Positions 445 through 60,479 are shown, counted from the whole stretch's first letter. The stretch: 60,479 bases of DNA, filler included, from Jimgerdemannia flammicorona (GCA_003990765.1; 3 parts of 3 records of this genome joined end to end with filler, not necessarily neighbours in it); one strand, 5' to 3'. Numbers and translations are program-made. Notes: a model not told the origin generated them from the letters alone.

Positions 445-2023
445 TGTCATGTAGTGGTTACTGAGTCCTTTAAATATGTCAGATTCTCTTCAAGGTGTAT
501 CTCTTAGACTAACTTAAGTTTATTATAAGCAAGTTCTTATTGGAGTTCCTTTCCAAGGTCTTATAGTCCTCAAACTTCTTATCTTTAACTATCTTGTTAT
601 CTCTTAGATTACTTGTAAGGGATTGTATATATTGCACTAAAAGGAACTAACTTTATTTCAGAGAAAATAAGAGGGATATATATATAAAATATAATTCAAT
701 AGTTGCTAAGATATAAAGCTAAATATAAATTCCAATAACTAAAACTACTAAGTTCTAGAGTCGGTACTAATAGTTGTATAGGTTCAGGATGCTGGTATAA
801 TTCAGTATTATATCAGAATACTGGTGCTGGCATTATTTAGTATTATATCAAAATACTGGTACTGGAACAATTCTGCATCACCTCAGAATGCTGGTGCTGG
901 CATTATCCAGTGTAATAAGGAACTTAGAGTAGAAAGTTCAGAACCATAGGGGCTTCATCCTTGTCATCAGAGGTCAGGATATCTTCAAAGGAGATGAGAT
1001 CTGCAAATTTGTCATATAGGTTACACGTTTAACGTACTTTGCATACTTCATCACATGTTTCATATATGTCAAAGTTGCACAGGATGATATCATCGCCAAT
1101 GACATCATTATGTTCAGCAGTGGTAGGAACAAGGAGATCTGGAGCTCTCCAGTCTATAAGGTTCTCTTTTATAAAATAGGGAACAAATGTGGGGTCTTGG
1201 GAAGGTTTAACCCAGATACTTGGGTCTTGGAATACTGAGATCAATCCTTGCAGGAATTGGTCTGGGTTGTCTTAGAGGATGGGGTGCCAGAAGTCTTCTA
1301 CTTCATCACTATTGAGGGTAATAGTGGACTGGGCTTTTGTAGCCACTCTGGCTTCTAGTATATTAATATGGTGGGATGACAGATCTCTGAAATCTGAAAC
1401 TCTAACATACTCTAAGTTGGGGATCGACTATGGTACATGTCTGAAGATCTGATGGATCTTCTTAGCTATCCTTGTTTCACATATATCTATGGGAGTGACA
1501 TCTTATAGCTCTTGAGTGCTGGCCTGTGGAAACTCCTGGTAGAGGAGGTTTCCTATTTCATACTCCTGCTACATTTGGAGACATTTAGTAGCAATGGTGA
1601 TCCTTGTTTCCATTTTACAGCAGTAGAAGATATAATGATAAAAGTCACCAGTACCTAGATTAACACTAGGAGTTCTTCTTGAGTGGGTCCTCATAGCTCT
1701 TCTAAGGTCTTGGAACATCCTTTCTTCAACTGAGGTACCTTGGTGGTTCCTTGATCTTGAGGTTTGGTGGACAGCAGGTATTTTGTTTGTAATAAGTCTT
1801 TGAGCTATTTTGGGATTAGTGGGTCTTGTTGATTGCTACTACTGCAGTTTCTTGATCCTTCTTTTATATTCCTCAGGATACTTGTACTGTGGTCACAATG
1901 ACTCACAGTTGGTCATCATTGCTCATCTTATATGCTATATGATCTTCTTGTACTCCAATCTGGTAGCTTGTAAGGAAAGACTGTCTCCTGTGCTGATGTC
2001 ATTATTCTGGAGTTACTGTTACA
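445..2023 (-). mobile_element. Solo LTR (~1.58 kb) of Ty3/Gypsy family B, containing an accessory ORF
   Basis: Termini TGTCAT...GTTACA. Colinear over its whole length with 29783-31373, which abuts a PPT. Flanks ATAA/ATAG fit a 4-bp TSD with one G>A change. No internal domain on either side. Confidence 0.85.
924..1781 (-). pseudogene. LTR-encoded accessory ORF of family B (about 285 codons, several in-frame stops, start decayed ATG>ATA)
   Basis: One frame reads (M)PAVHQTSRSRNHQGTSVEERMFQDLRRAMRTHS...QM*QEYEIGNLL...RIAKKIHQIFRHVP*SIPNLEYVRVSDFRDLS. The stops checked are at TGG>TAG and CAA>TAA positions. Homologous to 30259-31085 and 46456-47463. Confidence 0.75.
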
Positions 2024-11016: not shown

Positions 11017-11467
11017 CCAAAGTACTGCAATGGTACTCAAGATCACTAGTGCTACACAAAGGGCCATCGAAAGACAATGGCACACCACCGAGCCTCTGAC
11101 TATAGAGGTATACTATGATGATATTCAGAGTATTGTGCAGACTCATCTCTCTTGAATCTTGCACTTTAGAGCCTATTAATATCAGGCAGAATTCCAAGAG
11201 TACTTCAAGCTTGAACAGGTACTCAATCAGGATCCAGCAAAGACCAAAGAGGACTGGATTACCAAGTGTCAACTCTCTCACTCACAGATCACTATTGCCA
11301 AAAGGATCCACAAGTTATTCTAAGAAGATGAACCAGCAATAGACCACCTGAGAGGAGTAACCCCTACTGACTTCGAGAAGGTGAGAAGACATCATTGGGA
11401 AACAGTTATATAGCAAATTGCACAGTACAAAACCATACAGATAGTTGAAGCCTGGGAGTTTGAATAG
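11006..11467 (+). pseudogene. Accessory ORF3 of family A (153 codons, unknown function)
   Basis: The ATG overlaps the integrase stop (ATGGCCAATAA). Reads MANNQSTAMVLKITSATQRAIERQW...EFQEYFKLEQVL...IAKRIHKLF*EDEPAIDHLRGVTPTDFEKV...AWEFE*. Start, stop and length match copy 2 (12775-13236). Confidence 0.8.
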
Positions 11468-12774: not shown

Positions 12775-13236
12775 CTATTCAAACTTCCAGGCTTCAACCA
12801 TCTGTATGGTCTTATACTATGCAATTTGCTGCATGACTGTTTCCTAATGATGTCTTCTCATCTTCTTGAAGTCAGTGGGGATTACTCCTCTCAGGTGGTC
12901 TATTGCTAGTTCATCTTCTTGGAATAACTTGTGGATCCTTTTGGCAATAGTGATCTGTGAGTGGGAGAGTTGACACTCGGCAATCCAGTCCTTTTTGGTC
13001 TTTGCTGGATCCTGATTGAGCACCTGTCCAAGCTTGAAGTACTCTTGGAATTCTGTCTGATATTGATAGGCTCTAAAGTGTGAGATCCAAGAAAGATGAG
13101 TCTGCACAATACTCTGAATATCCTCATAGTATACCTCTATGGTCAGAGGCTTGGTGGTGTGCCATTGTCTTTCAATGGCTCTTTGAGCAGCACTAGTGAT
13201 CTTGAGTGCCATCACAGTGCTTCAGTTATTGGCCAT
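12775..13236 (-). pseudogene. Accessory ORF3 of family A copy 2
   Basis: 462 nt, same frame as ORF 12844..13215 (…YQTEFQEYFKLGQVL…IAKRIHKLFQEDELAIDHLRGVIPTDFKKMRRHH). The ATG overlaps the integrase stop. Confidence 0.8.
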
Positions 13237-20094: not shown

Positions 20095-20194
20095 NNNNNN
20101 NNNNNNNNNNNNNNNNNNNNNNNNNNNNNNNNNNNNNNTTAATTAATTAANNNNNNNNNNNNNNNNNNNNNNNNNNNNNNNNNNNNNNNNNNNN
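20095..20194. other. Artificial contig-joining spacer (N44-TTAATTAATTAA-N44)
   Basis: Exactly 100 bp with a linker carrying stop codons in all six frames. An identical spacer is at 40288-40387. Confidence 0.97.
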
Positions 20195-29782: not shown

Positions 29783-31228
29783 TGTCATGTAGTGGTCACT
29801 GAGTTCTTCAAATATGCCAGATTCTCTTCAAGATATATCTCTTAGACTAACTCAAGTTGTTATAAGCAAGTTCTTATTGGGGTACCTTCCCAAGGTCTTA
29901 TAGTCCTCAAACTTCTTATCTTTAACTGTCTTGTTATCTTTTAGATTGCTTGCAAGGAAGTGTGTGTAAGTGAAACCAGAACTGACTTTATTTCAGAGGA
30001 AATAAGAGGGGTATTTATACAAAATACAATTTAATGGTTGCTAAGATATAAAGCTAAATATAAATTCCAATAACTAAAACTACTAAGTCCCAGAGTTGGT
30101 ACTGATGGTTGTACAGGTTCAGGATGCTGGCATTATTTAGTATCACATCAAAATGCTGGTGCTGGAACAATTTTGTATCACCTCAGAATACCAGTGCTAG
30201 CATTATCTAGTGTTATATGAGAATACCAGTGCTGACATTATCTAGTGTAATAAAGAACTTAGAGCAGAAAGTTCAGGATCATGAGGGCTTCATCATCATC
30301 ATCACTGAAGGAGATGAGATCTACAAATTCATCATATAGGTCATGCATTTCACGTACTTCATGTACTTTGGGTATATTATGTGGGATGATGTCATCAATA
30401 ACATCATTATGTTTGGCTGTAGCGGAGAAATCGGGGACAAGGTCTGGAGCTCTCCAGTCTATGAGGTTCTCTTCTACAAAATAAGGAACAAATGTGGGGT
30501 CTTGGGGAGATCTAACCCAGATACTTGGGCCTTGGAATACTGAGATCAATCCTTGCAGAAATTGATTTGGGTTGTCCTGAAGGATAGAGTGCCAGAAGTC
30601 TTCTACTTCTTCACTGTTGAGGGTGATGGTGGACCGGGCTTCTGTGGCCACTCTGGCTTCTAGTACATTGATACAGTGGGATGATAGGTCTCTGAAGTCT
30701 GAGACTCTAACATACTCCAAGTTGGGGATCAACCATGATACATGTCTAAAGATCTGATGGATCTTCTTAGCTGTCCTTGTTTTGTATATATCTATGGGAG
30801 TGGCATCTTGTAGCTCTTGGGTGCTGGCCTCTGGGAACTCCTGGCAAGGAGGTTTCCTATTTCATACTCCTGCCACATTTGGAGGTATTCAGTAGCAATG
30901 GTGATCCTTGTTTCCATTTTATGGCGATAGAGAATAAAGTGATAAGGGTCTGCAGTACCCAGGTTGACACTAGGAGTCCTTCTTGAGCAGGTCCTCATGG
31001 CTCTTCTGATGTCTTGGAATATCCTTTCCTCAACTGAGATACCTTAGTGATTCCTTGACCTTAAGGTTTGGCAGGCAGCAGGCATTTCGTTTGTGGTAAG
31101 TCTTTGAGCTATTTTGGAATTAGTAGTTCTTATTGGTTACTGCTACTGCAGTTCCTTGATCCTTCTTTTATATTCTTCAGGATGCTTGTGCTGTGGTCAC
31201 AATGACTTATAGTTGGTCATCATTGCTC

Positions 31229-31265
<37 letters not shown>

Positions 31266-34200
31266 TCATTGCTTATCTCATATGCTGTATGATCTTCTTG
31301 TACTCTAATCTGGTGGCTTGTAAGAAAAGGCTGTCTCCTGTGCTAATGTCATCATTCTGGGGTCACCATTATATCTTCCTCCTGAATAAGAATCTTCCTG
31401 AGCATCCTTATTCATTGGTCCAGTCCTGAAAAATTTGCTGATCCCATAATCTCTGGCAAGGGATCAAAAACTGGTGCTTATGGGCTGGCGTCTTCCCTTT
31501 GTATTTTGGCATGATAGTGAAGGGTCACTCCCTTCATATAGAGCAAGGACCTGATTCTGATCTTGACCAATCAGTTGATGGTTCGAACTCCTCTGACTGC
31601 AAAAGTCTCACAGATGAGTAGTTGCCAGTACTGTATCCCTTAGAGAATGGTCCAGACAGATAGCCTGCTGGTCATAGGACATGCTGTTATGATTCGTGGA
31701 CTAGAACCTCATGGGTAGTCATTACATTTTGCTTCTCTTATATAGGTTCATGGTACTTCTTGAGTCTGTTCCTATGTACCATAGTAGGCAGTATGGTCCC
31801 TGAGATTTTTCTAAGCCAGAAGGTAGTTTCCTTGATATCTTGCACATAGAAGGGTCCTTCCCATTTGGGCTCCAGTTTTCGTGACTATGAGGCTTCTACC
31901 ATATTTTGATACAGTAGAACTTTTTCTCTGATTCAGATGAGTTCTAGGGCCTTGTGATTCTTTTCTGCATTCTTTCTTATCAGCGCTTGTGACTTGGTGA
32001 TATAATCTTCAGCCTTCTTCCTGATTTGGTATAGTCTCCAGATTTCTGCATCAACCCATCTCCAAGTTAGGTCTAGATTTGTGGCTAAGGTTCTATCAGA
32101 ATCTTCTTCTCCGAAGAGCAGCTCTCTTGGGGTAAAATGTGTGCTCTGTAATCATATGTCTCATAAAACAGAGAGGGCAGTTGGGAGATAGTTATCCCAA
32201 TTCTCATATATCTCTGAGATCTTCACTAAGATGTTCTTGAGGGTCTTGTTGGTTCTCTCTGTCTGTCCATTTCCTTGAGGGTGGTATGTGGTGGTCTTGA
32301 TATGCTGAATCTTATATTTCTGATACATTATCTCATAGAATCCATTGACAAATTCTGTGCCACAGTCTGTTGTGATTTGCTTTGGTGTCTTGTAGTGGCA
32401 GATGATTTCTCGGTATAGGAAGTTGGCTATAGAGAGGGCATTGGCTTCTTGTAATGCTCCTGCCTCTATCCATTTGGTGAAGAGGTCTACAATAACTATA
32501 ATATAGTGGTTTCCTGATAGTGTTACTGATAGTGGTCTAATAATATCCATTGCGATGTAGTGGAAGAGGATAGGCTCAATTCTTGATGATCCAGGTGCCT
32601 GGTCTTACTGATCTTGTTTCTGTTTTTGGCACTTGTCACACCCTTTGACAAATTGGTGCAGGTCTTCTTCCATCTTGGGCCACCACATGGTTCTTCTTAC
32701 CTTGTCATATGTATTGGTTTCTCCTAAGTGTCCTTGCTTATGTACTTCCTTCATTACTTGATACTTTTTGTGTTCAGGTATTACTAGCTTTCCTTCTTTT
32801 CTGAGTGTAGTGTTGTCTAATTCAAACTATTTCCAAGTCTGGTTAATGATAGTGATTGTCCAGGGTTCGAGGTGATTGGACATCTTTCGCTGCCCAAGAT
32901 AGCTGATTAATCCATAGTATAGCTCCTTATTTATGTTGAGTAGTCTTGATGGGAGTGTTTCAGGGTGTCCTTGAGAGTGCATCGGCATTGGTGTTGGTCT
33001 TTCCTGAGTGGTGCTTGACAGTACAGTCATACTCTTACAGCCTGTAGATCTATCTGGCATATATTCCTTTGGGGTTCAGAGTGTGGAATAGCCAGGCAAG
33101 AGCAGAATGGTCTATTTGAATGGTGAAGTGTTTTCCAGCTAGGTAGTAGTGGAACTTGTCTACTGTCCAAACTATCGCTAAGCATTCAAGCTTGCATGAC
33201 TCATAGTTCTGTTCTGCTCCATGAATACCTTGGCTTACATAGGAGATGACATATTCATGTCTATCTTTCTTCTGAGCTAGGACTGCTCTAAGTCATATAG
33301 CACTCGCATCTGTCTGCAGGATGAATTCTAGGTTCCAGTCTGATCTTCTGAGGATGGGTGCTTGGGTCAACCTGGTCTTGAGTTCATTGAAGGTTTCTTG
33401 GCACTCCTTGGTCCATTTGAATTTGGTCTCCTTCTTCAGTAGCTCATAGATAAGTGCTGCAATATTGGAGTATCCTTTGATGAATCTTCTGTAGTAGCTG
33501 GCCAGTCCAAGGAAGGCATGGACTTCTGTGGTTATTCTGGGTCTTGGGTAGGCTGCAACAGCCTCAATCTTCATAGAGTCTGTGTGGATTCCAGTCTGAT
33601 TGATGAGGTGTCCTAGGTAGGTGATTTCTTGAGCTGCAAACTTACATTTCTTGGGCTTGATGTAGAGGCCATGCTCCTTGAGCCTCTTGAGGGCTAGCTG
33701 TATGTAATTGACATGTTCCTGTGCAGTGTTGCTGAAGATGATCACATCATCAATATAGACAAAGAGCCATTTTCCAATCTTGTTGCTGAAGACTCTATTC
33801 ATCATTCGCTGGAAACTTGCTGGGGCATTGTACATTCTAAATAGCATTTACAGATAGATATAGGTGGCATCAGGTGTGATGAAGGCTGATTTCTCACTGG
33901 CATCTTGAGTGAGACCAATCTGATGGAAGCCTGAGAACAGATCCAAGATGGTGTAGTATTTGGCTTCACTTCCAAGAGTAGTAAGGATTTCTTGAATATT
34001 CGGTAAGGGCTGCCTATCCTTCTTGGTGATGGCATTGAGTTTCCTGTAGTCAATACAGAGTCTTGGTACAAACTCTCCAGGCTTGCTTCCTTTCTTTGGG
34101 GCAAGAACAATGGGTGAGGCCCAGGGGCTGATAGCTTGCTTGATGATTCTGGCTTCTTCTATTTCCTTGAGTTCAGCTTGCAGCCACTCTCTGTAGGCAG

Positions 34201-35170: not shown

Positions 35171-35172
35171 AC

Positions 35173-38100
35173 ACACCTTTCACCAGTAACATTTGGGTGA
35201 CACAAGACTCAGACAACACTTTTTACAATGTTTTTGGTATCTGACGACTAACAACATGGACAGCAACGATCGATCTGGTGAGCATACTGGCCAGGGGGGT
35301 GATGGCGCCTTTGGCTGGCAGCAGGTGGGGAGGAGGGGAGATGGTTTGGGGATGCCAGGGGCCTCGATGGCTAGCTGAGGCCCCGGCAGTGGAGGGAGGG
35401 GAGATCTGAGGCAGAGAGGAGGGGAGAGGTCAACCTTTGCTGACAAGGTCAGGATGGGGAAGATGGCTTCTGGGCTGGATAGTTGGCTGGGCCTGGGGAA
35501 GGCGACGATGGCTACTGCTGGGGGTCAGGGAGGTGCACCCCAGGGTACTTCTGGTGGTAGGGAAGGGGCTGGAGTAGGGGCTGGAGATGTGACTGTTGAT
35601 GGGGCTGTGACTGGGGATCTGACAAAAAATCCAGATGTGACGACAGTTGGCAATTTGGGACTTGGAGTGGGCATGAGGCCCAGGGACCTGGCAGATGGGG
35701 TGATAGGCATGGTGTCGGCCCCGTTACTCAAGAAGTCGAGATCCGAATTCATGGTCATGATGTGCTTCTGGGGCTTGGCAGTGACGGCAAGGATGATTTT
35801 GGGGCTGGTGGTGCAGGAGGCTAAGAGAGCAGCGTCAGTGAAGTTCTTGAGGAGAAAGGAAGGGGTTGAGGTGGGGTTTGAGGAGGAAGACACCTTGTTG
35901 GCAGCCATGGAGAAGGGGGTGATGGTTGGCAGGGTTGTGGTCCCTATGGCCCGGTGTATGCACTGGGACCCCCAGGTGGTGCAGTTGATGGTGTTGGACC
36001 TTCCTATGGTGTCGAAGAAAAGGACCAGAGAGTTGGTTGTGGAGGTGATCAAGGAGTATGGTGAGATTGTAGATGTTGGGTTCAAGGTCTGGGAGGGCAT
36101 GGAGCTTAGAACTGGAGACGTCGATGTCAGGGTGAGACTGGCTGGAAAGGAGAATACGGAGAAGTTGAGAGACTGGCCAGCAACACTGTGGTGGGGACCG
36201 GTGGAGTGTAAGGTCACTAGGGTGAAGGGGACTCAGGAGGAGGAGAAGAACCTGTTGGAGGCTCTGGAGGACCTGGAAGGGGGCAGTTGTGAGGAGGAGA
36301 TTAGCCTGGAAGGAGTTTGAGGCCAGGACGGTAGTGGGGGAGGTGGATGGGAAGAGGGTTCAGATGGAGAAGGGGGCCTGGGAGAAGATGCAGGGGAGGA
36401 GAATTCAGAAGGAGTTGTTGGCGAAGTTGGGCGGGGGTAGGGCTGGTGGAAGCTCCAGCAAGGGGGCTGCAGGGCTGCAGGAGAGTGCCTGGGCTGAAGG
36501 GGGAGAGATGGCCCAGGGTGGGGCTCAGATTGTAGTCAGGGAGAGGAGGGAGGATAACTTGGAGGTAGATGCCGAAATGGGCGAAGGTGGGTGCCCTCAG
36601 TATAGTGTGCCGGATGGGGCAGGAGGTGAGGAGGAGCTGATGGATGTACCGGAGGAGGAGTGGGATGAGTCAGTGAGGAGGAGCATACTGGTAGACCTCG
36701 AGGTGGATGGGGGACAAATTGCTCAGGGGGCAGCAGAGGCAGTAGATGAGGAGAAGTGGATGTGGAAGACCCTGGAAGGGCTAGCGGCTGAAGAGCTGGG
36801 GAGTGAGAACTTCAGGGTGATGGAGGAGAGGCATTGGGAGGAGATTCTATATGGGGAAGAGGTGCCAAGGAAGATAAGAAATAAGATCCTGGCTGTCCTC
36901 TTGGAGTCTGTTGAGTATCAGATTGATGATCAGCGAGAGGAGGAGCTTAGAAGGATTGCGAGTAACAGGGCACTTATCTTGTGGAACTCGAGGAAGGGAC
37001 TAGAGAAGTGGCACGCAGTCTGCTTAGATTACAGGGTGGATATGGAGGAGGTGGACAGGGTGGAGTGTCAGGAAATCTTGGGGGTGCTGGATGCTCAGGA
37101 TATTGCGGAGGGTGATTTGGAAGCTGAGCAGCTCTTGGACTTGGCAAGGGATGAGATGAGCATGGAATTATAGGTTGGGGTCCCTTTTACAATATCTACT
37201 CAATATGAACAGTATAACTAGGATATTCTCATTGAATGTGAATGGGTTACGGGGGGCAGCTAGGAGGAAGTACATCTTTGGTTGGCTTCGGGGTCTGGAT
37301 GCGGACCTCTTCTTGTTACAGGATGTTCGGTATGATGCAGATGTGGATTTACAGGATTGGACTAAGGAATGGGGGGGTGCAGCAGTTTGGAGGGGGAAAG
37401 TGGGTATTCTTGTTTGGAAAGGGATGGGGGACATTGGGGACATTGGACATTGGGGTTGCAGGTGGTGTGGGGAGTATGGCAGAGGCCTGGATGGGGCTCG
37501 CTGATGGTTGGGTCTTGTTACTATCCAGCTGAGAGAGGGGAGAGGGTGGATTGGATTCGCAGGTTGAAAGAGGCTGGTTTATTGGGAGAAGTTGGGTTTG
37601 ACTGTATGGGGGGGGACTTCAACATGGTACGGGATAAGGAGTTGGACAGAACTGATGGAGAGAGAGGCATGCGAGGTGAAAGTGGTGGGTTGGCAGACTG
37701 GTTGGAGATGGAAAGGTTGTGTTCTTTAGTGGACTCAGGGAGACATTTTTGGGCTGATCGGTGGATGTATACCCATTGGGTGGCAGGACTGGGCTCTAGG
37801 ATTGACTGGGTTCTAACAGCAGAGTGTTGGGGAGCAGATGTCTGGACAGTGCTGGGTGTCATATGGTGTCTATGGTCTGATCACTGGGGGTTGCTTGGAG
37901 GGGAGAGGTTTGGGGGAAATGAGGATGGGCCTGGATATTGGTGGCTAAATTCTTCCTTGTTGGAGGATAGGGCATTGTGGGAGGGTTGGGAAACAGAGGT
38001 GATCAGAGATATCAGCAGGTGGCAGGATCAAGGACTGGTGATTGGGAACCGCTGGAGAAGGCTGAAGGTGAAAGCTCAGGGGTATTGAAGGGAAGTGGGG

Positions 38101-40287
38101 AAAGGAAAGAGTGCTCAGCATAGGCAGCAGGTGATGTGGGCCTTGCAGTGTTTGGTGGCGCTCATGGAGAGATGGGTGGGTATGCTGGAGGATAGGGCCA
38201 AGGCTGATTGGCATATTGCAAGAATCTGGCAGGAGGTGGAGGAGCTCAAAGGGGTGCTATGGAGGGAGGAGGAGGAGCAGCTGCAGGGGATGGTGGCCTG
38301 CTTGTGATGGCAGGAACTTGAGGAAGGGGAGAGACCTACCAGGTTCTTGTCACGGTTGTTACAAGCATGATGAATGAGGCAGCGGTGGGAGGGAGTTTTG
38401 GATGAGAATGGTGAGCTAGTGGTGGGGACCCCAGTGATTTTGGGCCTCTTGCGATCCCAGTGGGAGAACCTTTGGAGTGAGGATGAAGGGGGACTGGATG
38501 CCCTAGACATTGAAAGGCAGCTGGGGGATTGGCACCCGGACCCTGCTATGGGACTTGTGGCATTGGGGGACCCAGTGAGTGGTGAGGAGATTTGCAAAGT
38601 GGTGGCCTCTATGAGTAAAGAGACAGCCCTGGGAGAGGATGGACTCCTCTGAGATTTTTGGCAGAAGATGACAGGGGTGCGTGAGGTACTTGAGGAAATG
38701 ATGGCTATGTGTGATGAAGTTCTTCGGTCTAGTGCCTGGATTGGGGGACAGTGCTTGGGGCTGGTCTCCTTGCTATATAAGAACAAGGGCAGGAGGGAGG
38801 ATTGGAAGAACTGGCGGCCAATCATGCTTCTGGACATGGACCACAAACTGGTGACGAAGATCTTGGTGTTGCGGTTGCAAGGGATCGCACAGCAGGTGCT
38901 TGGTTTGGAGCAACGTGGGTTTGTCAGCAGTCGATTGATTCGAGATGGGACAGCCTGGGTTCATGGAGTGATTGAAGGTACCCGGGCTACAGGGGTGGAT
39001 GGCAGATTGGTATTTCTAGACCAGGAGAAGGCTTATGATAGAGTGTGGAGAATATGGCTAGAGGGAGTGCTGAAGCGGATTGGTATCCCTTCAGGGTTCC
39101 GAGGTTCATTGATCAGCCTCTTGGAGGACAGTCAGGTGGCATTGGTCCTCAATGGCCACCAGGGGGTAACCTTCCCCCTGGGCCATGGGGTGCCACAAGG
39201 GGACCCCTTGTCACCCATATTGTATGCCCTTTCCCTGGAGCCACTACTGGACAGGATTCGGTATAAGATTGGAGGTTTGGACATCTTAGGGGTGAACTGG
39301 AAGGTGGGGGCCTTTGCCGATGATATGGTGGTTGGACTGGGGTCCTTGGGGGATGTTGGAGAGTTGCAGAGGACAGTGGAATGGTATGAGCGGGGTTCCA
39401 GTGCTAAACTGAACTGGCACAAATGCAAGATGCTGGTGCTGGGCACTGGAATTGTCAGTGGCAATGTTATTGGAATGGTGGTTCTGGCTGGTGAACCAGT
39501 GTGCTACTTGGGGATCTACTTCTCAGTGTTCGGATCTCTTCTTCCTCGGGCATGGTGGGACTGTAAACTGCTGGAGTGGGGCAATGTCTTGATGCGGTGG
39601 GGAGGCCGGCATATGTCCCTAGCCAGAAGGGTGATGGTGTTGAATGTGTACTGGATGCCGAAGCTGTGGTATGTTGGATATCATTTGGATTTCCTGCCGT
39701 GGGTGGTTAAGGGGTTGTTGAAGATGGCGAGGTCATGGATTTGGGGAGGGCGGCAGAGCCAGGTTAGTTGGGAGGTGCTCATGCTGCCCTTGGAAAGAGG
39801 TGGACTGGGCTTAGTAGACTTTACTAAGCAGCTTTTATGTCTGAGGGCCTGGTGGCTAAGGAGGGCGAGTGAGCTTAGAGGTTGGGAGTGGGTGCCACTC
39901 ATGCAGAGATTGTGGGAGGTTTGATACTCCCCATGTGGTGGCTCCAGCGACCTGCTTGCAATAGTGGCTATAGAAGGGAGTCGGAGGATGCGGTTTACAG
40001 GCTTTTGGTGGGGAGTGGTAGATGGTGCTAAGAAAATCAGCCTTCAGTGGTGAGGTGACGAGGCTGAGGAAGTTTGGGGACCGCAGATGTGGAGATGGGA
40101 CAGGCTTCTATTGGGTGGTATTCTGGTGGAGAACTTTCAGCTTGGCGAGGGTCTGGAGTACCTGCGAGGCCTAGGTGGAGACCTGTGGCCTGAAGCCTGG
40201 CAGAGGGTTGGAATCGGGGAAGAGTGGGATTGGAATGGGCTCTGGCTTTGGAGCAAACGGGTGAGGCAGTGGCTGCCCCCCAAGTTC
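35173..40287 (+). mobile_element. L1/Tx1-like LINE with intact 5' end: ORF1 (35256-37173) and ORF2 (37205 onward; APE endonuclease and RT); 3' end lost in the gap
   Basis: Endonuclease motifs SLNVNGL, GGDFNMV, SRIDWVL and SDH. RT motifs NWRPIMLL, LDQEKAYDRV, GVPQGDPLSPILY and FADD. Broken by stops and frameshifts. Confidence 0.93.
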
Positions 40288-40387
40288 NNNNNNNNNNNNN
40301 NNNNNNNNNNNNNNNNNNNNNNNNNNNNNNNTTAATTAATTAANNNNNNNNNNNNNNNNNNNNNNNNNNNNNNNNNNNNNNNNNNNN
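40288..40387. other. Artificial contig-joining spacer
   Basis: N44-TTAATTAATTAA-N44. Confidence 0.97.
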
Positions 40388-40825
40388 GAAAAGCAGTCAC
40401 CTACGCCAGAACCGTGCTCGCCGGGAAGCTCGCCAAAGCCAGAGGGCCCCACCACAGGCACCGAGGACCTGCAGGTAACCTACACTGAGCACTTGACGCC
40501 CAAGGTCGGCCGACTCCCTACGTAGCCCAAGACACACCGAGACAACTCCTTGTTGGCGACGGCAAAAGGAAGAAGGCACCGCACCAAAACGGGTACACCC
40601 CAGACGCAGCTGAAGGCACCAGAATCCGCGAAAAAGTGGAGGAAGCACCGATCTGACACCGATAAAGGGGCAACATATCACCATTGCCTCCCTCCCACTG
40701 CCCTGCAACAGGTACAGCAAACCAACCCGAGGTAGAGGGGGTAATAATTGTGGAAAGTGGACTCGGAAGGTTGCCTACCAAACCATTGTGACCGGTAAGG
40801 TAGCGGAGAAAGGGGCGTAGAAATA
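40388..40825 (-). mobile_element. Possible 5' end of a related LINE (minus strand), cut by the gap
   Basis: CpG-rich block. Its minus-strand start CCCTTTCTCCGCTACCTTACCGGTCACA resembles the LINE 5' end CACTTTCTCCGGTAACATTCAGGTTACA at 18021. The similarity is weak. Confidence 0.35.
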
Positions 40826-40859
40826 GGTTATCTATATGAGATTGTTTCAGAATATTTAT

Positions 40860-41450
40860 ACTTCTCTTCATCAGTAGTATTTAGAAATATAACTGTCTTT
40901 TGAAAATTCTATCAGAATTTCCATTACATCAGATATCTATATCTAGTTACTTCTGTATTTGATAAAAGATTGTTTACTTTTTTTTAAATAGTATTTATAC
41001 TTGTAGTATCTTTTCCATTTTATGAGATAGTATTAGATGGGCTTGGTAGCTTATCTAAATTAATAATTCTTATAATTCAGAATATAGTCTCCTTCATATT
41101 CTAATTGCTGATCAATAATTACTAAATTGTGAGATAGTATAGTTTTTTCTTCAAAGGTATTCAGAGTATATAGCTAAAGTTGAAATATATGAAATACTGG
41201 ATAAATTCTCTTTAGTATGTATTACTAAGAGATCTAACTTATATATAATAGATCTATATTTTTTAAGAATCTTGAATAGTCTAATATAACAGAGTTTAAG
41301 TTTCTTTTTGGAATCTATATTATCTAGCATTAGGTACTAAGTACTAAGTAATACTTATTCTTCTGTTTTATAAGTAACTTTCTTTTATTTTATTAGTATA
41401 TACTACTTATATTCTTTGTTCCTCTATGAGAACATCTTATGTTTACTGAA
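40860..41450 (-). mobile_element. Decayed chromovirus 3' end (IN C-terminus and chromodomain)
   Basis: Colinear with 2150-2700; minus strand reads YLIKWKRY near 41005-41030. Confidence 0.6.
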
Positions 41451-43839: not shown

Positions 43840-44095
43840 AGTACTATCTCTAGCTACTCTTCTTCTAACCTATAATAGAGATAGATATAAATATCTCTAG
43901 TATTAGAGTAAATAAACCTCAGATCAAAATAGTTTAAAGCAAAGAGAAAATAAGAGAATTAGTAAGCCTGTGGGCAGATACACTTTGAACTCACCCACTT
44001 CTATATTCTAAAGACTCTATAGAGTTAAAGAAGATTAAGTTTTCAAAATACAGAAATCTGATATACTTATATAGTTATATATCTACTATATTATA
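43840..44095 (+). repeat. Decayed LTR fragment with the family A/C promoter-polyA core
   Basis: ATATAAATATCTCTAGTATTAGAGTAAATAAACCTCAGATC and AGAAATCTGATATACTT match the family A LTR 3' half. Confidence 0.55.
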
Positions 44096-46109
44096 CTATA
44101 TAGATTAGCTTGAGCTCTTAGTTACTTTGTTAAAAGTAAAAAATATTTTTATAATTTCTGATATTTTTAGTATTTAGTAGTATAATAGATCAATCTAGAT
44201 ATCAAGTAGTCAATTTCCTTACTGAGATGGATTCTTGAATATAGAGAAGAATTTGAAAAATTTATTGACAACTATATAAAAAATAAATAAAAGAACCTGT
44301 ATCTATTTTTTTTGAGAGAAACTACAGAATATTTTATTACTTTTTATTAAATATAAGAAAAATGTAACAGTTCATTATATAGCAATAAAGCTACTGAAAA
44401 TTCTAATAGAATTTTCAATAGAAATTCTAATAGAATTTCTAATAAATAGTTATAGATATCTCATATAGTATAACTTTATATAGTATATTATATTTAGCTA
44501 TAGCTTTAACTATATAAATATTCTTATACTAAGTATATTGTAATCTCAGTCTAAAAGTTGAAAAAAAGCTTAAACTCTACTTTCTCTGAATATATAAATA
44601 AGCAGTATTCTTATCAAAGAACTCTCAGATCTAACTTGTTAACAATTTTGAGCCTGATTAACTTAGGATACAAGTATGATATCTTAGCCACTAGTATAAG
44701 AACTCAAAAGTAATACTTGAACTATACTTTTACAATAGATATATAATTGGAACTTAGTACTTCTTTCTAAGTATCCAAAACTTAGAGCCAATAGTTATTT
44801 GATTATCTATAAAACATTAATTCTATTAGTATATAGTTTTATTATATCAAGTAGAGAGAGTATTATTGGATATAACTATACTAAATATTTAAGCTCAAGA
44901 GGTTTTTAAATAAAGTAATATATCCAAACTTAATAAATACAGAAGAATCAATATTCTTATTTCATATATGAATATAAGATTTATCAATATCTCTCCCAAC
45001 TGACTGCAGACCCTCTTATCTGTATCTTCTTATATTTGTCTATCTTGTCCTATCTCTTCTCATTTCCTACTTAATAAATTTAATTATTTTAAGATAAATT
45101 CTAACTCAATTATAGTTCTGACTTAATAACCCCTAATTTATTTATAAAGAAGATTGAAAATTAGAGCATAGTATTAGACAGATAAAAAAAAAGAAGCATT
45201 TTGACATACTTTTGAGAATAAGAGCTGGATTTTCAAAATAGATTTATCAACTATATTATATATAGTGTGACATTGGTTTTGTATAATGAACTTCGACTGC
45301 ACGGCTCAATGTGTGCCACTTGGTGAAGTGCACAATGTATATCTGAGGGTGTTGGTGACATTCGTGGGTTGATGGTCACGTGATCGGCTCGTTCGATTCA
45401 TACGATAATTGATAGTGAGAGTTCGTTCAATGATGGGAGAGGTCGTTCGATTGTTCAATGGCTCGGGACGTCGATGGCTTAATTGTTTAGTGGAAAAGGG
45501 CGGCGAATAACTTGAATTTATGTGGTGACGACGGGCTTGGCTTTAAGCGGTTCGTGGCGCAGTAGGTCGGGAAAACGGAGGTTGATGGCTCGCTCATCCA
45601 TCTTGACTTGTTAACTTGAAAGATTCCTGGCAGTCATTCAGGTCTTTGGCAGCGGCCTTGTATCCTTTAGCTGGGTAACTTGGGTTCCTTGGGTTTCCGG
45701 GTCTTAAATCTCGAATGGCGGTCGAATGGCAGTGGTCCAAATGGTGGTTGAATGGCGGCGGTCGTAGTCTTGAATCCTTGGCTGGGTCTCGGGTCTCGAA
45801 TGGCGGCAGTCGGGTAACGTTTTCTTTCCGTGGCAAGAGAAAATTCTTTAACTCAAACTTCCGAGTGATCCGTTGCTCTAGGTTGTTATCTTGTTCTCAG
45901 AATTTATCCGGTCTCTTGGAGGCAGTGTGTTTTCTCTGTAAAACTATCTGGCTGAGGTTTATTCACTCTAAGAGTATGGGTTATTTATACAAGTTTGCTA
46001 GCTATGGGGGGGGGGGGCGCGACTAAGACTAAGGTATACTACGTTGTGGCGAACTTATGCTATTGGTTTGCACGATATGAGGTGCAGGCTATTGTTTACT
46101 ACAGATTGG

Positions 46110-46446
46110 GTTGTAGGGGATAGCAACGCTGGATTCGGACCTGCTGACAAAATGCTGAAAACGGTGGTACTGGGTAGCAACGCTGGATTCGGATGAGCTG
46201 ACATGATACGATAATTGTTGCCAGAAACAGTTGTAGAGGGTAGTAACACTGAATTCGGACCTGCTGACAAAATGCTGAAAATGGTGGTACTGGGTAGCAA
46301 TGCTGGATTCGGATGAGCTGACATGATACGATGATTGTTGCCGGAAACAGTTGTGGAGGGTGGTAACGCTGAATTCGGACCTGCTGACAAAATGCTGAAA
46401 ATGGTGGTACTGGGTAGCAATGCTGGATTCGGATGAGCTGACATGA
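46110..46446. repeat. About 3 x 120-bp tandem repeat (two related subunits) in the family C LTR U3
   Basis: TTCGGACCTGCTGACAAAATGCTGAAAA recurs at 120-bp spacing (lines 46141, 46261, 46381), alternating with GGATTCGGATGAGCTGACATGA. Confidence 0.9.
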
Positions 46447-46455
46447 GCTGGGTTC

Positions 46456-47463
46456 TCACAGCTGATGGGCGGTACTCTGGAGGAAATAGTACCCTTCGTC
46501 CGTGGCGGGCAAATCTTGCTGGGTTGTGATTTCTTCTTCATCATGTCTCTCCTCAAAGGGGGGAAGAGCCGGCCAAGAGGTGAGGGGGTAGAAAAGTGGC
46601 CAGTCATCTTCAACAACATTCTCCAACCCTTGAACAGCTTGAATGCGGACAGAGGACTGGTAGACTCTCTGTTGCTCCTCTTCTTCTTCTGAAGACTCGT
46701 CAGTTTCAGTGTCAGAGGGGGTTTCTCCAGGGGTGGGGTCTTGGAGTTCTTGGGCTTCCTCTTTAAAGACAGGGACTTCTTGAGCTTCTTCTTGATTCGG
46801 TTCCCAAATGATGAGATGTGAATTGTGGCTGACAGGGTGGTGGGTGGTTGGGGTAGCTCCAACAGGTGTCTCTATAGTGATGGGCAGTCCTTCAAATATC
46901 TCCATAAGACTCATTAGGTGACCTTGATGGTTGTCTCGGAGTGGAGTGGTGTGGAAGCCTGGCTGAGTAGGTTTGGTTTGTTGGCTTCCTACGGCGATGC
47001 AGTTGCTGCCAATAGCATTGGCTACTTCAGATTCTATCCAGTCAGCATCTTCAGTTGAAAGACGTGAGAGGCTGCCAGCTGTTACTCCTTGCAAGTGTGC
47101 TATAGCCCAGGGAATATGGCGGAAGATTTGATGGATATGGAGGGCTCTCTTGATTAGCCGGCTGGTGGTTAACATTTCAGCAATGAGGTCTTCCTGGTCG
47201 CCTTCTTGAGTCTCATTGCGAAGGCGGTGTCCGATTTCATAGTCATGCCAGAGGGTCATTCGTTCGGTAGTGTCTTTGAGCTGTTGGGTCATTATATACC
47301 GGTAGTTGATGAAGTGTCCAAGGTCCTCAGTGTAGAAGTTCAAGTGTTCAGTAGTGTCTGGGCACCAGATGGCCTTCTTGATAGCTTCGAAGATCAGGGT
47401 CTTTGGGCCAGGCAAAGGGGTAGAGCGGCGGGAGGTCTGGTTGGATCAGCGAATGGGAGGCAT
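46456..47463 (-). CDS. LTR-encoded accessory protein (335 codons; one early TGA at codon 6, then open to the end), unknown function
   Basis: ATG at 47463 is in frame with ORF 46456..47415: MPPIR*SNQTSRRSTPLPGPKTLIFEAIKKAIW…LWHDYEIGHRL…RALHIHQIFRHIPWAIAHLQGVT…, followed by an acidic low-complexity C-terminus. Confidence 0.75.
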
Positions 47464-48957
47464 TGTGTGGTGGGTACTTGGTTCTTTGGTGCTGATCCCT
47501 GAGGCGGAGTATGGTTCCTTAAATAACGTGGTCTTCATTTTGGCTCGGATCTTCTTGTCTTCTTTTGGGATGATCACCTAATGGGTCAGGCTGTCTATTT
47601 GATTGTCACACCATTATGTTGTCTGATCTTAGCAGTCACCGGTACTCCGTTGTCATTTGCTTACGTCACAATAGGTATATCATATTATCAATATTACTTC
47701 TGATATTATAGTAGGAACCAGAAACCCAGATAAGTAGTGATGATGTATTGTATCTTATTATATTCCACTTTGGTGGACATATTGAGAGAATTACTAATTG
47801 AGTTTTTACAGGAATACTATATCAGATAGAAGTGTAGAGTGGTATTATTTTAGATAGCCACTGAGTTATTATGTAGTATATTGAGAAAATAACTAAAATC
47901 TCAGGACCAAATGACTGACCTGTACTTCCCCTTGCAAGTACTGTTTATGACTAAGTTGACCTCTCATGGAAGAAATATAAAACACCTAACTCAAAGGGCT
48001 TGAATCATTGAATGCTACCATTGTTGTTGAGAATACACATCATTGATGATTTTTGTGATCCCCCTTACATTGCCCTTTCAATCAATTGCACGAGAAAGTA
48101 TCAGAAGCTTCGTTTCCAAATACATGTGAAATAAATATTAAAGAAGCAACAAAAGGCAATGGAGCTATATGAAGTAAAAGGAGAAGTGGGTCCCAGGATC
48201 AAATGGTATGCTTAAGCTATCACTGGAGCATTCAGATTCGTTTGGCGAGCCCAAATTTTGTACTACCAGTCCCAAAACATGGTGAATCCCACAACCGCGT
48301 GTGAGGGCGCTCAAAACCAGTATTGATAAGTTGATGGCTTCCATTATACTTCAGCAATGTCATCAGAATCATATTCTTGGAAATAGTGTCCAACATTTTC
48401 TCTGCTTTTGCCATTGAGGAGAAATAATTTGTTGCCAACAAAGCTCGATTACAGCCCTAAGATATCCCCCGATTTTCTGTTCGATATGTTTATTAGCATA
48501 TTATCTCCCACATTATATCTATCTACCCATGAGACCCACTTGTATCGAGTCTTGCCTGTATTAATAAACGAAATGCAGTATATGTTATCATGGCTTTGAT
48601 AATGGATGGTGGGTTTGAAAACAGACTAAGTCCTTCCTATATCTATTGTCCATCTTCCAGAAGACATTCCTAAATTCATCAAGGTTCATCGCTGCCTTGC
48701 GTAATGCATCGCTCATCACCGATGCTTCCATTCCCTGCTCGCTCGTCTTATGCCTCGTGGTATGCGACGTTACCGACGAATGCATACTTGTCCTGTGCGG
48801 ACATAGGGGCGATGCGCTCGTGTGCATCTCTGTTGCCAATTGGCACGGAATCACTGATCGCTCCATCCGCCCCCTCATCGAAAAGTGCAGAAGCTCAAGG
48901 CTTACATTTTATCAAATGTGAGCCCAAATTATTTCCTAGTGTAGACCCTTTATCTTA

Positions 48958-49618
48958 TATAATAATATTAATAACAATATACATTAATATACAATAATTT
49001 GATAATCCATCACATTATTCTGATTGTGAACGTGTTCATAACTGCCCCTTATCATCGATAAGAGCTTTCCTTCTATAACTTTTTCTCGTCGCACTCAACT
49101 GAATGGGAGTACGGACGACGGGTCATATAAATTGTACAAACACATCAAAGGAAATTGAGTAATAATATTTTCTAGCATTATGTAAAATTTTTAAACAAAC
49201 CATTTCCGTATATAAATGGCGCGCCGAGAACATTGCAGCCATTGAGATAGACTATCTCAGAACGGACCGTTTTACCAACTTTGGACCTCTTCCCAACCAC
49301 ATATTCACTCCTTATTCCACCCCAGCCATCCCTCGCAATCTCCTTCACAAACTTGACTCACTTATATAATGCCTCATACACATCGTCATTATCCGAGATC
49401 TCGAATACTTACATCGCCGACTGTATTCCGCCTTGCTTCCCTTACGACATTGTGACCTGCAAATGAGATAGATATCCGTCGACAGAAAATATACGAGGTT
49501 AGCCTGGACAGTGTGCAGGGCCTGCAAGTCAGACATGTGTGTGATGTGGTTTACCGCAATGTCATGGTTCACTAAAAAGTCTGCTGCTTTGCCATAGCCG
49601 ATCTGTGAAGAGGTTGGC

Positions 49619-49684
<66 letters not shown>

Positions 49685-50960
49685 AAGAGTTATATATCTC
49701 ATTGAGCAGGAGTGTTGGAATAATAACTCTATAGTCCAGTATGTGATCTTATATCATTCTATCAGATTTATATCATTTATTAATAATATAGAGAAATATG
49801 TAACCTATATAACTTCAATAAAATCACCCTCTTTTATAATACTATACAAGTATTTCAGATTTCTATATCTTGAAAACTTGATCTTCTCTAACTCTGCAGA
49901 ATTCTTAGGATACAGAAATAGGTAAGTTCAAAGTATATCTACCTATAAACTTACTAGTCCTCTTGCTTTTTCTTTACTTTAAATTATTTTAATCTGAGGT
50001 TTATTTACTCTAGATACTGGGATATTTATATAAGTTTGCTAGTTATAGAGTGGCTAAGTTATAACTATATTTCCTATAAGTCACTTTTTACAAGTATTGA
50101 ATCTTTTGATATCTGCTAAGATTTCAATAATTATAAGAATTTTGAAATCTGCAGAATCTTAGCAATTGTTAAAGTTTTTATATTTGTAGAATAATTACTT
50201 TTATAGAGCTATATTATATTTGGAAATCAGATTCAGGTACTATAATTAAATATCTATTCTTCTGATTTATATTACTAATTAAGATCAACCATCACAATAA
50301 TAATATTAATAACAATATATATTAATATGTAATTATTAGAAAATCCATCACATTACTCTATTGTGAATATATTCAAAACTGACCCTTATCATTGATAAGA
50401 GCTTTCCTTCTAAAAAAATTTCTCATCGCACTCAACTGAATATAAATTGTACAAATACATCAAAAGAAATTGTGTAATAATATTTTCTAGCAATATGTAC
50501 AAAATTTATAATCAAAACATTTCTGTATTTAAATGGCGCCCCGAGAACATTGCAGCCATTAAGATAGACTATCTCAGAACGGACCGTTATTACAACTTTG
50601 GACCTCTTCTCTACCACATATTCTCTCCTTATTCCACCCCAGCCATCCCACGCAATCTCCTTCACAAACTTGACTCACTTATATAATGCCCCATACACAT
50701 CGTCATTATCCGAGATCTCGATACTTTACATCGCCGACTGTATTCAGCCTTGCTTCCCTTACGACATTGTGACCTGCAAATGAGATAGCTATCCGTCAAC
50801 AGAAAATATACGAGGTTAGCCTGGACAGTATGCAGGGCCTGCAAGTCAGACATGTGTGTGATGGACTTGGTCAAGGCTAACCGCGCCACAACTTTCGACA
50901 GGTGGTTTACCGCAATGTCATGGTTTACTAAAAAGTCTGCTGCTTTGCCATAGCCGATCT
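48958..50960 (+). repeat. Local direct duplication (about 48958-49605 and 50297-50960), each copy followed by a T-rich tract
   Basis: Colinear, for example AAATGGCGC.CCGAGAACATTGCAGCC at ~49215 and ~50531, and GCCATAGCCGATCT at ~49591 and ~50947. The second copy has about 40 extra bp near 50862-50901. Confidence 0.85.
49742..50296 (-). repeat. Decayed solo LTR related to families A/C
   Basis: TGTGAT…ATCACA ends. Contains ATCTGAGGTTTATTTACTCTAGATACTGGGATATTTATATAAGTTTGCTAG, the reverse complement of the LTR promoter core. The TSD is not preserved. Confidence 0.7.
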
Positions 50961-53900
50961 TTGGCTTTTTTTTTTTTTTTTTTTGGTTTTTGTTTTTTTT
51001 GTTTTTTGTTTTTTGTTTTTTGTTTTTTGTTTTTTGTTTTTTGTTTGTCAAGTGGAAGAGGGGAGTGGGGAGAGAAAATTGTCAGAGAGTGACATTAGGA
51101 TCTATTTTCTCAAATTTGAACAATCGCAACGCATCATAATCGGCCTTGACGGCCATGTCAAGGCGCATCACACAGACGATTCCATTCCCCATTCTACGTA
51201 CCATCCTCGTTACAGATCATGTACGGCATCTCGCAACAGCGTCAACTGTCATGGTCCTGATTATCCATGAGGATATCGAAGTTACAATTATTAGGATATG
51301 CCAGAAATACTTCTAAATGATTCTGTTTCGATGAAGTAAACCTCACACATAATTCTTTCTCATCACTTCCCACATCCCCTCATCTACGCTCGCCGCCCTC
51401 CCTCCCCAGCACAATCGCTAATGAAGGCACCACGTCTTCACGTTACTCTGTAACGACGAGACAGGTTGCGCGTCGATGCCATCCACATCGTCAGTAAGGC
51501 TGAAGCGTAGGGTAACGTCGAGGGGCATATACTCGTCTGGTTTTATGTCGGCGATGAACTACACCTCAAGATAGGGAGACAGTAGTAAAGTAATGCGTCG
51601 ATCGCGTGCGCAATGGTGGTGGGAGAGGTGGGAAGATAACGCCCATCCAAATATTAACCCGCGTTCTTTTCTCGCTCACATTTCCTACTATAAAATCACC
51701 CTCCATCCTTTTCCATGTCCATTTTACATACGGAATTTCCGTCTCCTGGCTGCTGACCGACGAATTACCGTTGGGCGACCTGCCGCTGGACGACGATTTA
51801 CCACTTGAGGGCGATTTTCGTGAGCGACAACTTGCGACTGGAGGAGGAATGATGAGGGATAATCAACCTGCGAATTTACTCTCGAAGTCTTACTGCTGAG
51901 CTACGACGGTGGCAATCAGCCTCGCTGGGAATGGCGAATAGCGACGATTTAACGCAATAATTTTCCTGCTGTCCTATGACGAGTTGCAGCTGAGCGACGA
52001 TTGCTAATGTAAGTGACGCTTTGTCGTATGCGACGATTGACCTCTTTGTGGGTGGCCAATAGTCGCCAGAGGGTAATTAGCTGTGAGGGACGATCGTCGG
52101 CTGAGTGAAGACTAAGAGTGACAATCTGCCGGTGTGCGCCAGACGAATATTGCAGGCGAGTGGCAACTTGGTAGAGTGGCTGAGTATTGTCGTGGGTAGC
52201 ATTTGACGTTGGGACATATTTGTCTGTTTTCTATAATAAACCAAGCATCACGTGGTCATTATCCACATTCACGAATTTTAAGTCAAGCCCAATACTATTT
52301 GTGTTGGGAAAACCCGATAAAAATTTTGGCCGACACTATTATATATTAATATTATCACTATATTCTTGTTATATTATTAATATTATTTGTTATTTTATTT
52401 TAATTTTATTGTATTGTTTCTATTATTAACTAAATATAATTTTATTATTAGAAAACCAGCTGTATCTTTAAGTGCCCGCCGCCCTATCCCTCCCCGGCAC
52501 TCTTTCGCCCCTGGTGACCTGATAACCCGGTGACCTGGAATCGCCCCTGGTAACCTGGTATCCTGGAAGCCATAAGACTGGAGCAACAGCAATCTGTGCC
52601 AATACGGAAAATTGCATCGGATGTTCGGACCTAGTCATTATGGTGGGGCCGAGAAAAAAATTATACAATGTGGTGGTTTAGTGTCAGATTAAAAATTTCC
52701 ACCAAGTGTGCGACTGCCCATTGGATGGAGCGCCGTGATGACGACGATAATGGCGAATGGCTCGTGGGCCTCGACGGTTCGATGATGACGCCTCCTCTGG
52801 TGACATCACCGTCTTGACATCTGTTTCATAGTAGCCGCGTTGAAATAATATAATACAAATTCACAAACTGCTTGATACAATCCTGCGCGGTTGAAATTCA
52901 AATTAATTCGACGGCCAACACCATCAAATGCGGCGGTGATATACTTAATCAATGAATTCCAACGCGTTATAATATTCCATCACGTTACAAACCTCAGCGC
53001 GTATGACCACATGTGACTTTGATTACTAGAAAGTATTCGCTTATAAAAGCTTTTCATTCACAGCACTCATACACATTCCTAAACCGTTCAATATCCATTT
53101 CGTGACCCATCAAGTTGCATGCATTTGTGATCATCGCGTTCGACTTCATCTTGAGAACAAGTAAATACCATTTATTTGTTAAAACACTTTGAACCATTTC
53201 ATCCCGTGTTTACCACATACGGTTCCACCAATATGTAAATGTAGACGGAAACAGAAACGTTACAGATCCAATGGGGATTTGGTCGGGCAACGGAATTCGA
53301 CCTGAATTTCGGGATCAGTAAGAGTTCTGGACGAAGAACATTCGGTTATGTAGGACTCCGTTGGTAGGCGGAGTACGCGTAGGCGAAATACGTTGACCCC
53401 GGGACAGAAATCCGAAATCCGAAATCGGGCGAAGAACGTAATAATGAAAAGGGACCTAAATCGGAATCTTGAAAAGAACTCAGATGAAGGACATAGCAAT
53501 GAAAAAGGGGCCTTGAACGGAAATCGTAACAGACATGGATTGGGTGAGCAGGGAGGTAGAAACAAGCTTGTCACGGGAATATATTGCAAAGTGGCGATGC
53601 AGTCTAGTGGGATTTACAACTCGATAAATGGTATACGTCATTATTGTGGCTTATGTATACATATGTCATCAATATCTACGCCACTAGAAATCATTCGTAA
53701 CACGTTGTTTTCAAGATTGCCGCTCTTTGTGAAATACCAAATATTCAGAATTTATTGCTCAAGATTACCATCCAGGGTGAACAGAGGTAAAGGCAAAGAC
53801 AGGCGAAGAGGCAGAGGGAAGGTGTTGTGTGCTCTTCAGAATTCTGCAATATTTAGATTTAAACTACTTGGGTATCAATATAAATTTCTACTAAAAATGA

Positions 53901-60408: not shown

Positions 60409-60479
60409 GTATGTCAGAACTGTGTAAAGCATTGTGGCAGATGCACGATGGAATGAAGTTCACGATCTGTACCTGTTTG

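Follow-up and report, generated by a model that had tools for sequence, protein, structure and literature searches.

The window analysed in this work, a stretch of 60,479 nt from Jimgerdemannia flammicorona, carries on its minus strand, at 45266-47670, a 2,405-bp unit that is very probably a solo long terminal repeat (LTR) with a conserved accessory gene in its U3 region. Judged by sequence comparison, this gene, an open reading frame (ORF) of 335 codons called ORFx here, is a real gene that is conserved in its retrotransposon clade and belongs to an orphan protein family. The family that the unit represents, hereafter the target family, is a sister to two dUTPase-bearing retrotransposon families, A and B, found elsewhere in the window. 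The assignment as an LTR comes from other samples, in which sequences resembling a primer-binding site (PBS) and a polypurine tract (PPT) adjoin the two ends of the unit with no duplication between them, in keeping with the solo LTR originally predicted. The parts of the unit are as follows.

45262..45265, no strand: left copy of the target-site duplication, ATAG
45266..47670, minus strand: probable solo LTR, 2,405 bp, bounded by TGTGAC...GTCACA termini and by contig ends
47671..47674, no strand: right copy of the target-site duplication, ATAG
47670 to about 45965, minus strand: putative U3, with limits placed from the TATA and AATAAA positions
47464..47670, minus strand: U3 leader, 207 nt, the first ~45 nt of which are like the 5' terminus of the family B LTR
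46456..47463, minus strand: ORFx, 335 codons plus stop, with a TGA at codon 6
46110..46446, minus strand: tandem array with a period of 120 bp, 2.8 units, 94% matches, between ORFx and the TATA box
45928..46015, minus strand: putative promoter/poly(A) core, 88 bp, with TATAAATA at 45989-45982 and AATAAA at 45963-45958
45266..45957, minus strand: putative R/U5, ~690 nt, CpG-rich, with estimated limits and a 26-bp repeat at 45714-45763

The unit begins with TGTGAC at 45266-45271 and ends with GTCACA at 47665-47670, which are perfect 6-nt inverted termini of the TG...CA type. ATAG is present on both sides, and the chance of such a 4-nt flank match, computed from the local base composition, is ~0.008. 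Both the termini and the perfect target-site duplication had been reported in the original prediction and are found as described. The flanks of the unit are 22% GC, CpG-free and unrelated to the junction sequences of other samples, as fits a solo LTR. The unit itself keeps many CpGs, as was also claimed: the observed/expected ratio is 0.67, compared with 0.00 in the left flank and 0.14-0.15 in family A. The claim that no gag or pol lies inside agrees with the scan of 10 of the 13 ORFs overlapping 45000-48000 (stop-to-stop, at least 60 amino acids (aa), three short ORFs left out), none of which reaches any Pfam family at E <= 0.01. A search of 45000-48000 against Rfam returned no match at E <= 0.1.

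Contigs of four public sequencing runs, most of them from soil metagenomes, were compared with 44900-48000. In all four runs contig depth is present across the unit and drops to zero at 45004-45211 and 47812-48000; it is nearly nil at 44900-45003 and 47708-47811. Loose contig ends fall exactly at 45266 and 47670. At the U5 end (45266) an identical junction sequence of 24-30 nt was found in run X1 (three contigs), in X2 (one contig, 245 nt) and in X3 (one contig, 250 nt), these runs coming from two studies. On the minus strand, TGG starts three T after the LTR end, and the usual primer-binding site likewise starts with TGG at that place. At the U3 end (47670) an identical 24 nt was found in five X1 contigs and one X2 contig; on the minus strand it places AAGGGGCAGA directly ahead of TGTGAC. 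This PPT-like sequence is comparable to CAGAAGGAAGT, which precedes the family A LTR, and to CAGGAGGAAGA, which precedes that of family B. A single 330-nt X2 contig runs from the PPT-side sequence through the leader and into ORFx as far as codon 33.

Altogether, U5 adjoins the PBS-like sequence in five contigs from three runs and U3 adjoins the PPT-like sequence in six contigs from two runs. The two junction sequences have no 4-nt duplication in common, and this suggests that they are internal element sequence and not insertion flanks. The sides on which they occur agree with the orientation given by ORFx and by the order of TATA and then AATAAA. Since both ends adjoin conserved PBS-like or PPT-like sequence, the unit appears to be the true LTR of a full-length element, of which the present copy is solo. 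The unit is devoid of terminal direct repeats, its self-comparison giving only the 120-bp array, which argues against a small non-autonomous LTR element of the terminal-repeat retrotransposon in miniature or large retrotransposon derivative (TRIM/LARD) kind. The junction motifs are not a feature of the window itself, where the PBS-side motif has no match and the PPT-side motif has one, at chance level; nor does the window contain a tRNA gene. Scans of metagenome contigs gave 589 pattern matches and no confirmed one with the ORFx alignment, and no match with the 30-nt PBS-side junction.

The internal organization of the unit follows the outline originally proposed. The leader, given as ~200 bp, measures 207 nt (47670-47464); it contains TATTTAA at 47525-47519, 56-62 nt upstream of the ORFx ATG, and an in-frame upstream ATG 25 codons ahead of that ATG. 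The 120-bp tandem array was found at 46110-46446 and consists of six copies of a 21-bp motif, GTCAGCNNNTCCGAATYCAGC, which has six matches in the window, all within the array, against 0.05 expected. One contig skips 180 nt in the array, so that its copy number varies. The array is a candidate enhancer. The putative TATA/AATAAA core, said to be shared with family A, is indeed 80-92% identical to the family A LTRs at 5446-5533, 11739-11826 and 12417-12501. In each of the four runs contig depth peaks at this core, and the loose contig ends at 45952 and 46006 suggest that the core is common to several LTR families. In the X5 contigs, which are RNA only by guess, the core and U5 are deep, the ORF is thin and the array and leader are absent, and no conclusion is drawn from them.

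ORFx reads on the minus strand from an ATG at 47463-47461 to a stop at 46458-46456, with the TGA of codon 6 at 47448-47446 and 329 codons open after it, which agrees with the frame described earlier. The suggestion that this TGA arose from CGA was substantiated: X1 and X2 contigs read G at 47448, restoring CGA, and the homologue P0001 has Arg at the position. The TGA had also been called the only visible lesion. It is there, but it is accompanied by missense changes of the CpG-decay type, since the Cys codons 34 and 155 of the window copy are CGC elsewhere, that is, CpG-to-TpG in this copy. As codon 6 is CGA (Arg) elsewhere, the present copy is decaying by CpG-to-TpG change, and with its premature stop and missense changes it is dead. 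The ORF is not absent from other copies of the repeat, having been found both in contigs and in protein relatives.

A word-indexed search of 5.8 billion proteins found two relatives with the single ORFx sequence and 14 with a profile; these 14, all of environmental origin, lack Pfam domains, and three of them carry the label 'hypothetical protein'. When 1.84 billion representatives were scanned exhaustively with HMMER, nine relatives emerged, all of at most 342 aa, and no fused or larger cellular one. The protein P0001 is intact, 325 aa long and 81% identical to ORFx; it begins MPPTRR, with Arg as residue 6. Three further intact proteins, P0003, P0004 and P0006 (214, 342 and 247 aa, respectively), show 30-36% identity to ORFx, and P0006 represents the family B type. 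It is conservation between families, and not between copies, that speaks for a function.

AlphaFold2 with 10 sequences predicts a helical domain with a small hairpin over residues 7-225 (predicted local distance difference test score, pLDDT, 75.5; predicted TM-score, pTM, 0.68) and a C-terminal tail of low pLDDT. The C-terminal parts of four homologues have a net charge of -16 to -29 and 9-17 W/F/Y residues, and they are L-rich as well. Acidic activation regions are acidic and studded with W, F, Y and L, and the ORFx tail bears a resemblance to such a region in its composition. Pfam gave nothing at E <= 1 for ORFx and eight family members except three chance-level rows, and a sequence profile search of the PDB gave no match at E <= 10. 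The best Foldseek E value against the PDB was 0.39 for the whole model and 0.99 for the N-domain; the best against the BFVD viral structure library was 0.41. VIA-align over 48,161 chains reached Z of 4.0 and 3.7 at best, and no DNA-binding fold was recognised; the ParB-type rows (VirB, and SopB twice) stand at Z 2.8-3.2, far below significance, and serve as no more than a lead. In the ESM Atlas P0001 had no usable match, and P0004 fell near unnamed clusters at about 0.9 with fewer than 170 shared features.

The sister families place ORFx within retrotransposons. The window joins three pieces of ~20.09 kb each by two artificial linkers: piece 1 holds family A and a single family B LTR, piece 2 a family B element with its pol region, and piece 3 the target unit and a kinase gene fragment (58261-59268). 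Family A and the target are therefore on separate pieces. A profile of ORFx and its database relatives was searched against the six-frame translation of the window and yielded ORFx-like segments in both families, listed here with the features around them.

446..2023, minus strand: family B LTR copy 1, ~1.58 kb, with a decayed ORFx homologue at 930-1754 (E 7.6e-83)
29783..31372, minus strand: family B 3' LTR, adjoining the PPT, which reads CAGGAGGAAGA on the minus strand
30265-31055: ORFx homologue, frameshifted, inside the family B 3' LTR (E 2.5e-67 and 7.5e-24)
31749-35095: family B pol, with protease (PR), dUTPase, reverse transcriptase (RT), RNase H (RH) and integrase (IN), next to the 3' LTR and PPT
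11033..11446, plus strand: family A copy 1 ORFx-like segment (profile 11-147, E 2e-06), with the 3' LTR from 11506
12814..13203, minus strand: family A copy 2 ORFx-like internal segment (E 5.6e-07)
20095-20194 and 40288-40387: artificial linkers, each 44 N, then TTAATTAATTAA, then 44 N

Both sister families are of the Ty3/gypsy type, with the dUTPase between protease and RT, and in the window their LTRs flank gag and a PR-RT-RH-IN pol. Their LTR termini are similar to the TGTGAC...GTCACA of the unit. The two family B LTR copies align from 433-2016 to 29767-31366 at 80.5% identity, and the alignment stops at the PPT of the pol-bearing element, so ORFx is inside the LTR in family B, as in the target. 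No similarity to gag was found in the first 445 nt of the window. In family A the LTR is only ~470 bp, and in both copies the ORFx-like segment is internal, between the integrase end and the PPT. The presence of ORFx in A, B and the target points to an accessory gene that is older than these families and has shifted with respect to the LTR boundary; ORFx is an old gene of the clade, not a recent host capture. The insertion sites are all of the ATA-N type (ATAT/ATAT in family A, 5209-11971; ATAA/ATAG in family B copy 1; ATAG/ATAG in the target), which suggests that the clade makes a 4-bp duplication and prefers AT-rich targets. As a separate observation, a 68-bp patch at 6492-6559 in family A copy 1 is missing from copy 2 and is 91% identical, in reverse orientation, to family B ORFx at 1511-1578; it could be a template-switch or repair patch.

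The original prediction had offered an alternative, namely that the unit is a self-contained non-autonomous gene cassette mobilised by the integrase through ends that the enzyme recognises, never having been the LTR of a larger element. The perfect 6-nt inverted termini, the 4-bp duplication and the lack of gag and pol inside would all fit such a cassette, and its termini are like those of families A and B, whose integrases could recognise it. This explanation is nevertheless improbable: the PBS-like and PPT-like sequences stand at both ends in other samples and in the orientation that 5' and 3' LTRs would have, a pol region adjoins the family B homologue, and an RNA of the unit, with no internal PBS, PPT or terminal direct repeats, could not be reverse-transcribed in the usual way. 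Another possibility is that the unit is the truncated 3' end of an element, that is, a 3' ORF followed by a shorter LTR, and that its ends and duplication arose by chance in AT-rich DNA. Family A, with its internal ORFx-like segment and short LTR, is a precedent for this arrangement, and the calculated chance of the flank match is not negligible. We consider it the least probable explanation of all, because the PPT-like junction lies exactly at 47670, upstream of the leader and ORFx, in six contigs of two runs, because the first ~45 nt on that side resemble the family B LTR terminus, and because the cover by other samples stops exactly at both unit ends.

Instead of a retrotransposon gene, ORFx might be a recently captured host gene or a functionless open frame. 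It matches no Pfam family or known fold, and the substitutions between copies look neutral. However, homologues at 30-36% identity stay open over 214-342 aa, ORFx occurs in at least three diverged LTR families of the window and always at the element 3' end or in the LTR, and the nine relatives among the 1.84 billion representatives do not lead to any larger host family. This explanation is accordingly hardly more probable than truncation, and we retain a solo LTR with a conserved accessory gene in U3 as the explanation of the unit.

Several points weigh against this conclusion or limit it. For the target family just 24-30 nt of internal sequence is visible on each side and no full-length element was seen; its gag-pol is inferred from the sister families, which are on other pieces of the window, and the three-piece construction does not imply that families A, B and the target are neighbours or share a chromosome. 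It had been stated that the LTR hypothesis would fail if the repeat never flanked gag-pol. In other samples the repeat is indeed joined to internal retroelement sequence, of which 24-30 nt is visible at each junction. The PBS-like junction may be the complement of a tRNA-Pro 3' end. Among the 40 of 246 contig-window differences listed, 15 are within ORFx, 11 of them non-synonymous and four synonymous, with one giving other copies a stop at codon 329; by these counts the differences look neutral, and ORFx copies seem to drift like dead transposon copies. ORFx is upstream of the TATA/AATAAA in a solo or 5' LTR, so that its expression from a solo LTR needs a promoter of its own or read-through. 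The idea of a gene cassette that leaves a complete gene at each insertion holds in part: a gene-sized ORF is left, but it lies upstream of TATA/AATAAA and has a premature stop. Finally, a regulatory function finds no support in homology or fold (VIA Z 3.7-4.0; Foldseek E 0.39-0.99).

We propose the following history. The integrase would have made the 4-bp ATAG duplication at insertion, and LTR-LTR recombination would later have removed the internal part, leaving a U3 of ~1.7 kb with ORFx, then the six copies of the 21-bp motif, then TATAAATA/AATAAA. With ORFx downstream of the PPT, plus-strand priming would place it in U3, and reverse transcription would copy it into both LTRs; each solo LTR would therefore retain one copy after recombination. 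In the full-length element, translation of ORFx probably proceeds from a subgenomic mRNA that is 3'-coterminal, spliced or internally initiated, and would end at the poly(A) site of the 3' LTR, in the manner of other third ORFs of LTR elements (PMC5408684; PMC10309623). The putative AATAAA follows TATAAATA by just 26 nt on the minus strand; it is therefore probably at or before the cap site and would be read in the 3' LTR only. The TATTTAA at 47525-47519 is, by inference from its position, the sole candidate for a promoter belonging to ORFx itself.

The most likely role of the ORFx protein would be that of a trans-acting regulator of the element's own expression. That it is a transactivator acting on the U3 repeats is a tentative proposal, which we regard as possible and short of probable. 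The main alternative, drawn by analogy, is an RNA-export or adaptor protein of the Cer1 CERV/Rev kind. The narrower proposal, also an analogy, that ORFx is a Tas-like transcriptional transactivator encoded in U3 upstream of its own six-fold response element and promoter is unlikely. If a transactivator is nevertheless encoded, each LTR would be a self-contained module of regulator and target; intact solo LTRs could serve the entire family as a source of the factor in trans, or the host could domesticate them as regulators; and the crossing of the PPT boundary by the gene, which is internal in family A and in the LTR in family B and the target, would be the step that created such modules.

Retrotransposon LTRs are normally non-coding. 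The sag gene of mouse mammary tumour virus (MMTV) is a superantigen ORF in the U3 of a long LTR; it is present in both LTRs and transcribed as the viral RNA 3' end. ORFx is similarly placed, lying wholly between the LTR start (47670) and TATAAATA (45989) within the estimated limits of U3, and in both cases the ORF is kept at endogenous or solo copies. MMTV, however, is a betaretrovirus of vertebrates that possesses env, and its Sag protein is a membrane glycoprotein of type II, whereas ORFx has no Pfam match or transmembrane-like feature in its model and resides in a fungal Ty3/gypsy-type element. No homology of ORFx to Sag or to another retroviral accessory protein was found in Pfam or among viral structures (best E 0.41). 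Foamy viruses have 3' accessory genes overlapping U3, namely that of the tas/bel1 transactivator and bel2/bet, which extends into U3; Tas, whose activation region is acidic, acts on the LTR. The acidic, aromatic-rich tail of ORFx and the adjacent six-fold U3 motif would fit such a role, although ORFx shares no sequence or fold similarity with Tas (Foldseek viral library, best E 0.41).

Among Ty3/gypsy elements, Cer1 of C. elegans has a lineage-specific third gene, CERV, in the env position; CERV has homologues only within its host group, its mRNA is spliced, and export of the genomic RNA depends on CERV (PMC10309623). CERV differs from ORFx in being internal and built from exons partly in the gag frame (PMC10309623), and no similarity between the two was found. 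The fungal element PosPlaTy3-5 is described with a dUTPase between protease and RT, as in families A and B, and a figure legend of the same paper ascribes to some fungal elements an 'additional ORF with unknown function' (PMC2864245). No ORF is placed inside an LTR in the parts of PMC2864245 consulted, and a pol of the target family is predicted from the sister families. Bdelloid rotifer LTR retrotransposons carry diverse ORF3s downstream of pol, usually on spliced messages (PMC5408684), and the Botrytis element BcGypsy1 has an extra ORF, brtn (bioRxiv 10.1101/2021.04.13.439636). These are likewise family-specific extra ORFs past pol in Ty3/gypsy-like elements, some with dUTPase; they are internal and several have enzymatic or env-like domains, whereas ORFx is an orphan and is located in the LTR in two of the three families. 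Phrase searches of the open-access literature found no description of a gene inside a fungal retrotransposon LTR, which is not proof of absence.

An accessory gene in U3 doubles its dose per element, and the solo LTR, the commonest relic of an insertion, still carries the whole ORF. Location in U3 could thus offer a transposon gene a simple way to persist, to act in trans or to be co-opted. Sister families in which the gene lies on opposite sides of the PPT boundary point to a possible relocation of an accessory gene into the LTR. ORFx also represents an orphan family with no recognised fold in poorly sampled soil fungi. The value of the finding is modest unless expression and function are established.

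Other features of the window were recorded alongside the unit. An AT-rich repeat of ~600 bp occurs with 74% identity in piece 1 (2099-2700), 75 bp from the family B LTR, and in piece 3 (40824-41416); a reading of these copies as flanks of one duplicated locus was rejected, because the N-linkers put them on different pieces. A retroelement designated 'D' cuts short both family A copy 2 and the family B element. Its copies at 18014-20094 and 35166-40287 are 89.6% identical across 2,084 bp, begin at the identical position and both reach piece ends; the first ORF encodes 477 aa with no Pfam match, an RT lies at 38653-39921, and the element has a strong G-over-C skew. The region 20195-29000 (~9 kb) has 44-55% GC, high CpG (observed/expected 0.81 across 18023-29000) and ORFs of up to 427 aa with no Pfam match.

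On piece 3, an inverted LTR-core-like fragment is found at 43885-44081 and another LTR-core-like fragment at 49835-50064. The interval 48959-51028 contains two direct copies of ~0.7 kb, 1.3 kb apart and 84-93% identical, each terminating in a very long T run (~70 T at 49620-49683). The open frame at 58261-59268 has a protein kinase domain (Pfam Pkinase, E 5e-23); its nearest named relatives are from Endogonales fungi (36-40% identity), and unnamed environmental proteins reach 56-67%; these matches make a soil fungus close to the Mucoromycota the probable host. A tandem repeat of ~170-177 bp with 72-83% identity occupies 59826-60479, up to the window end.

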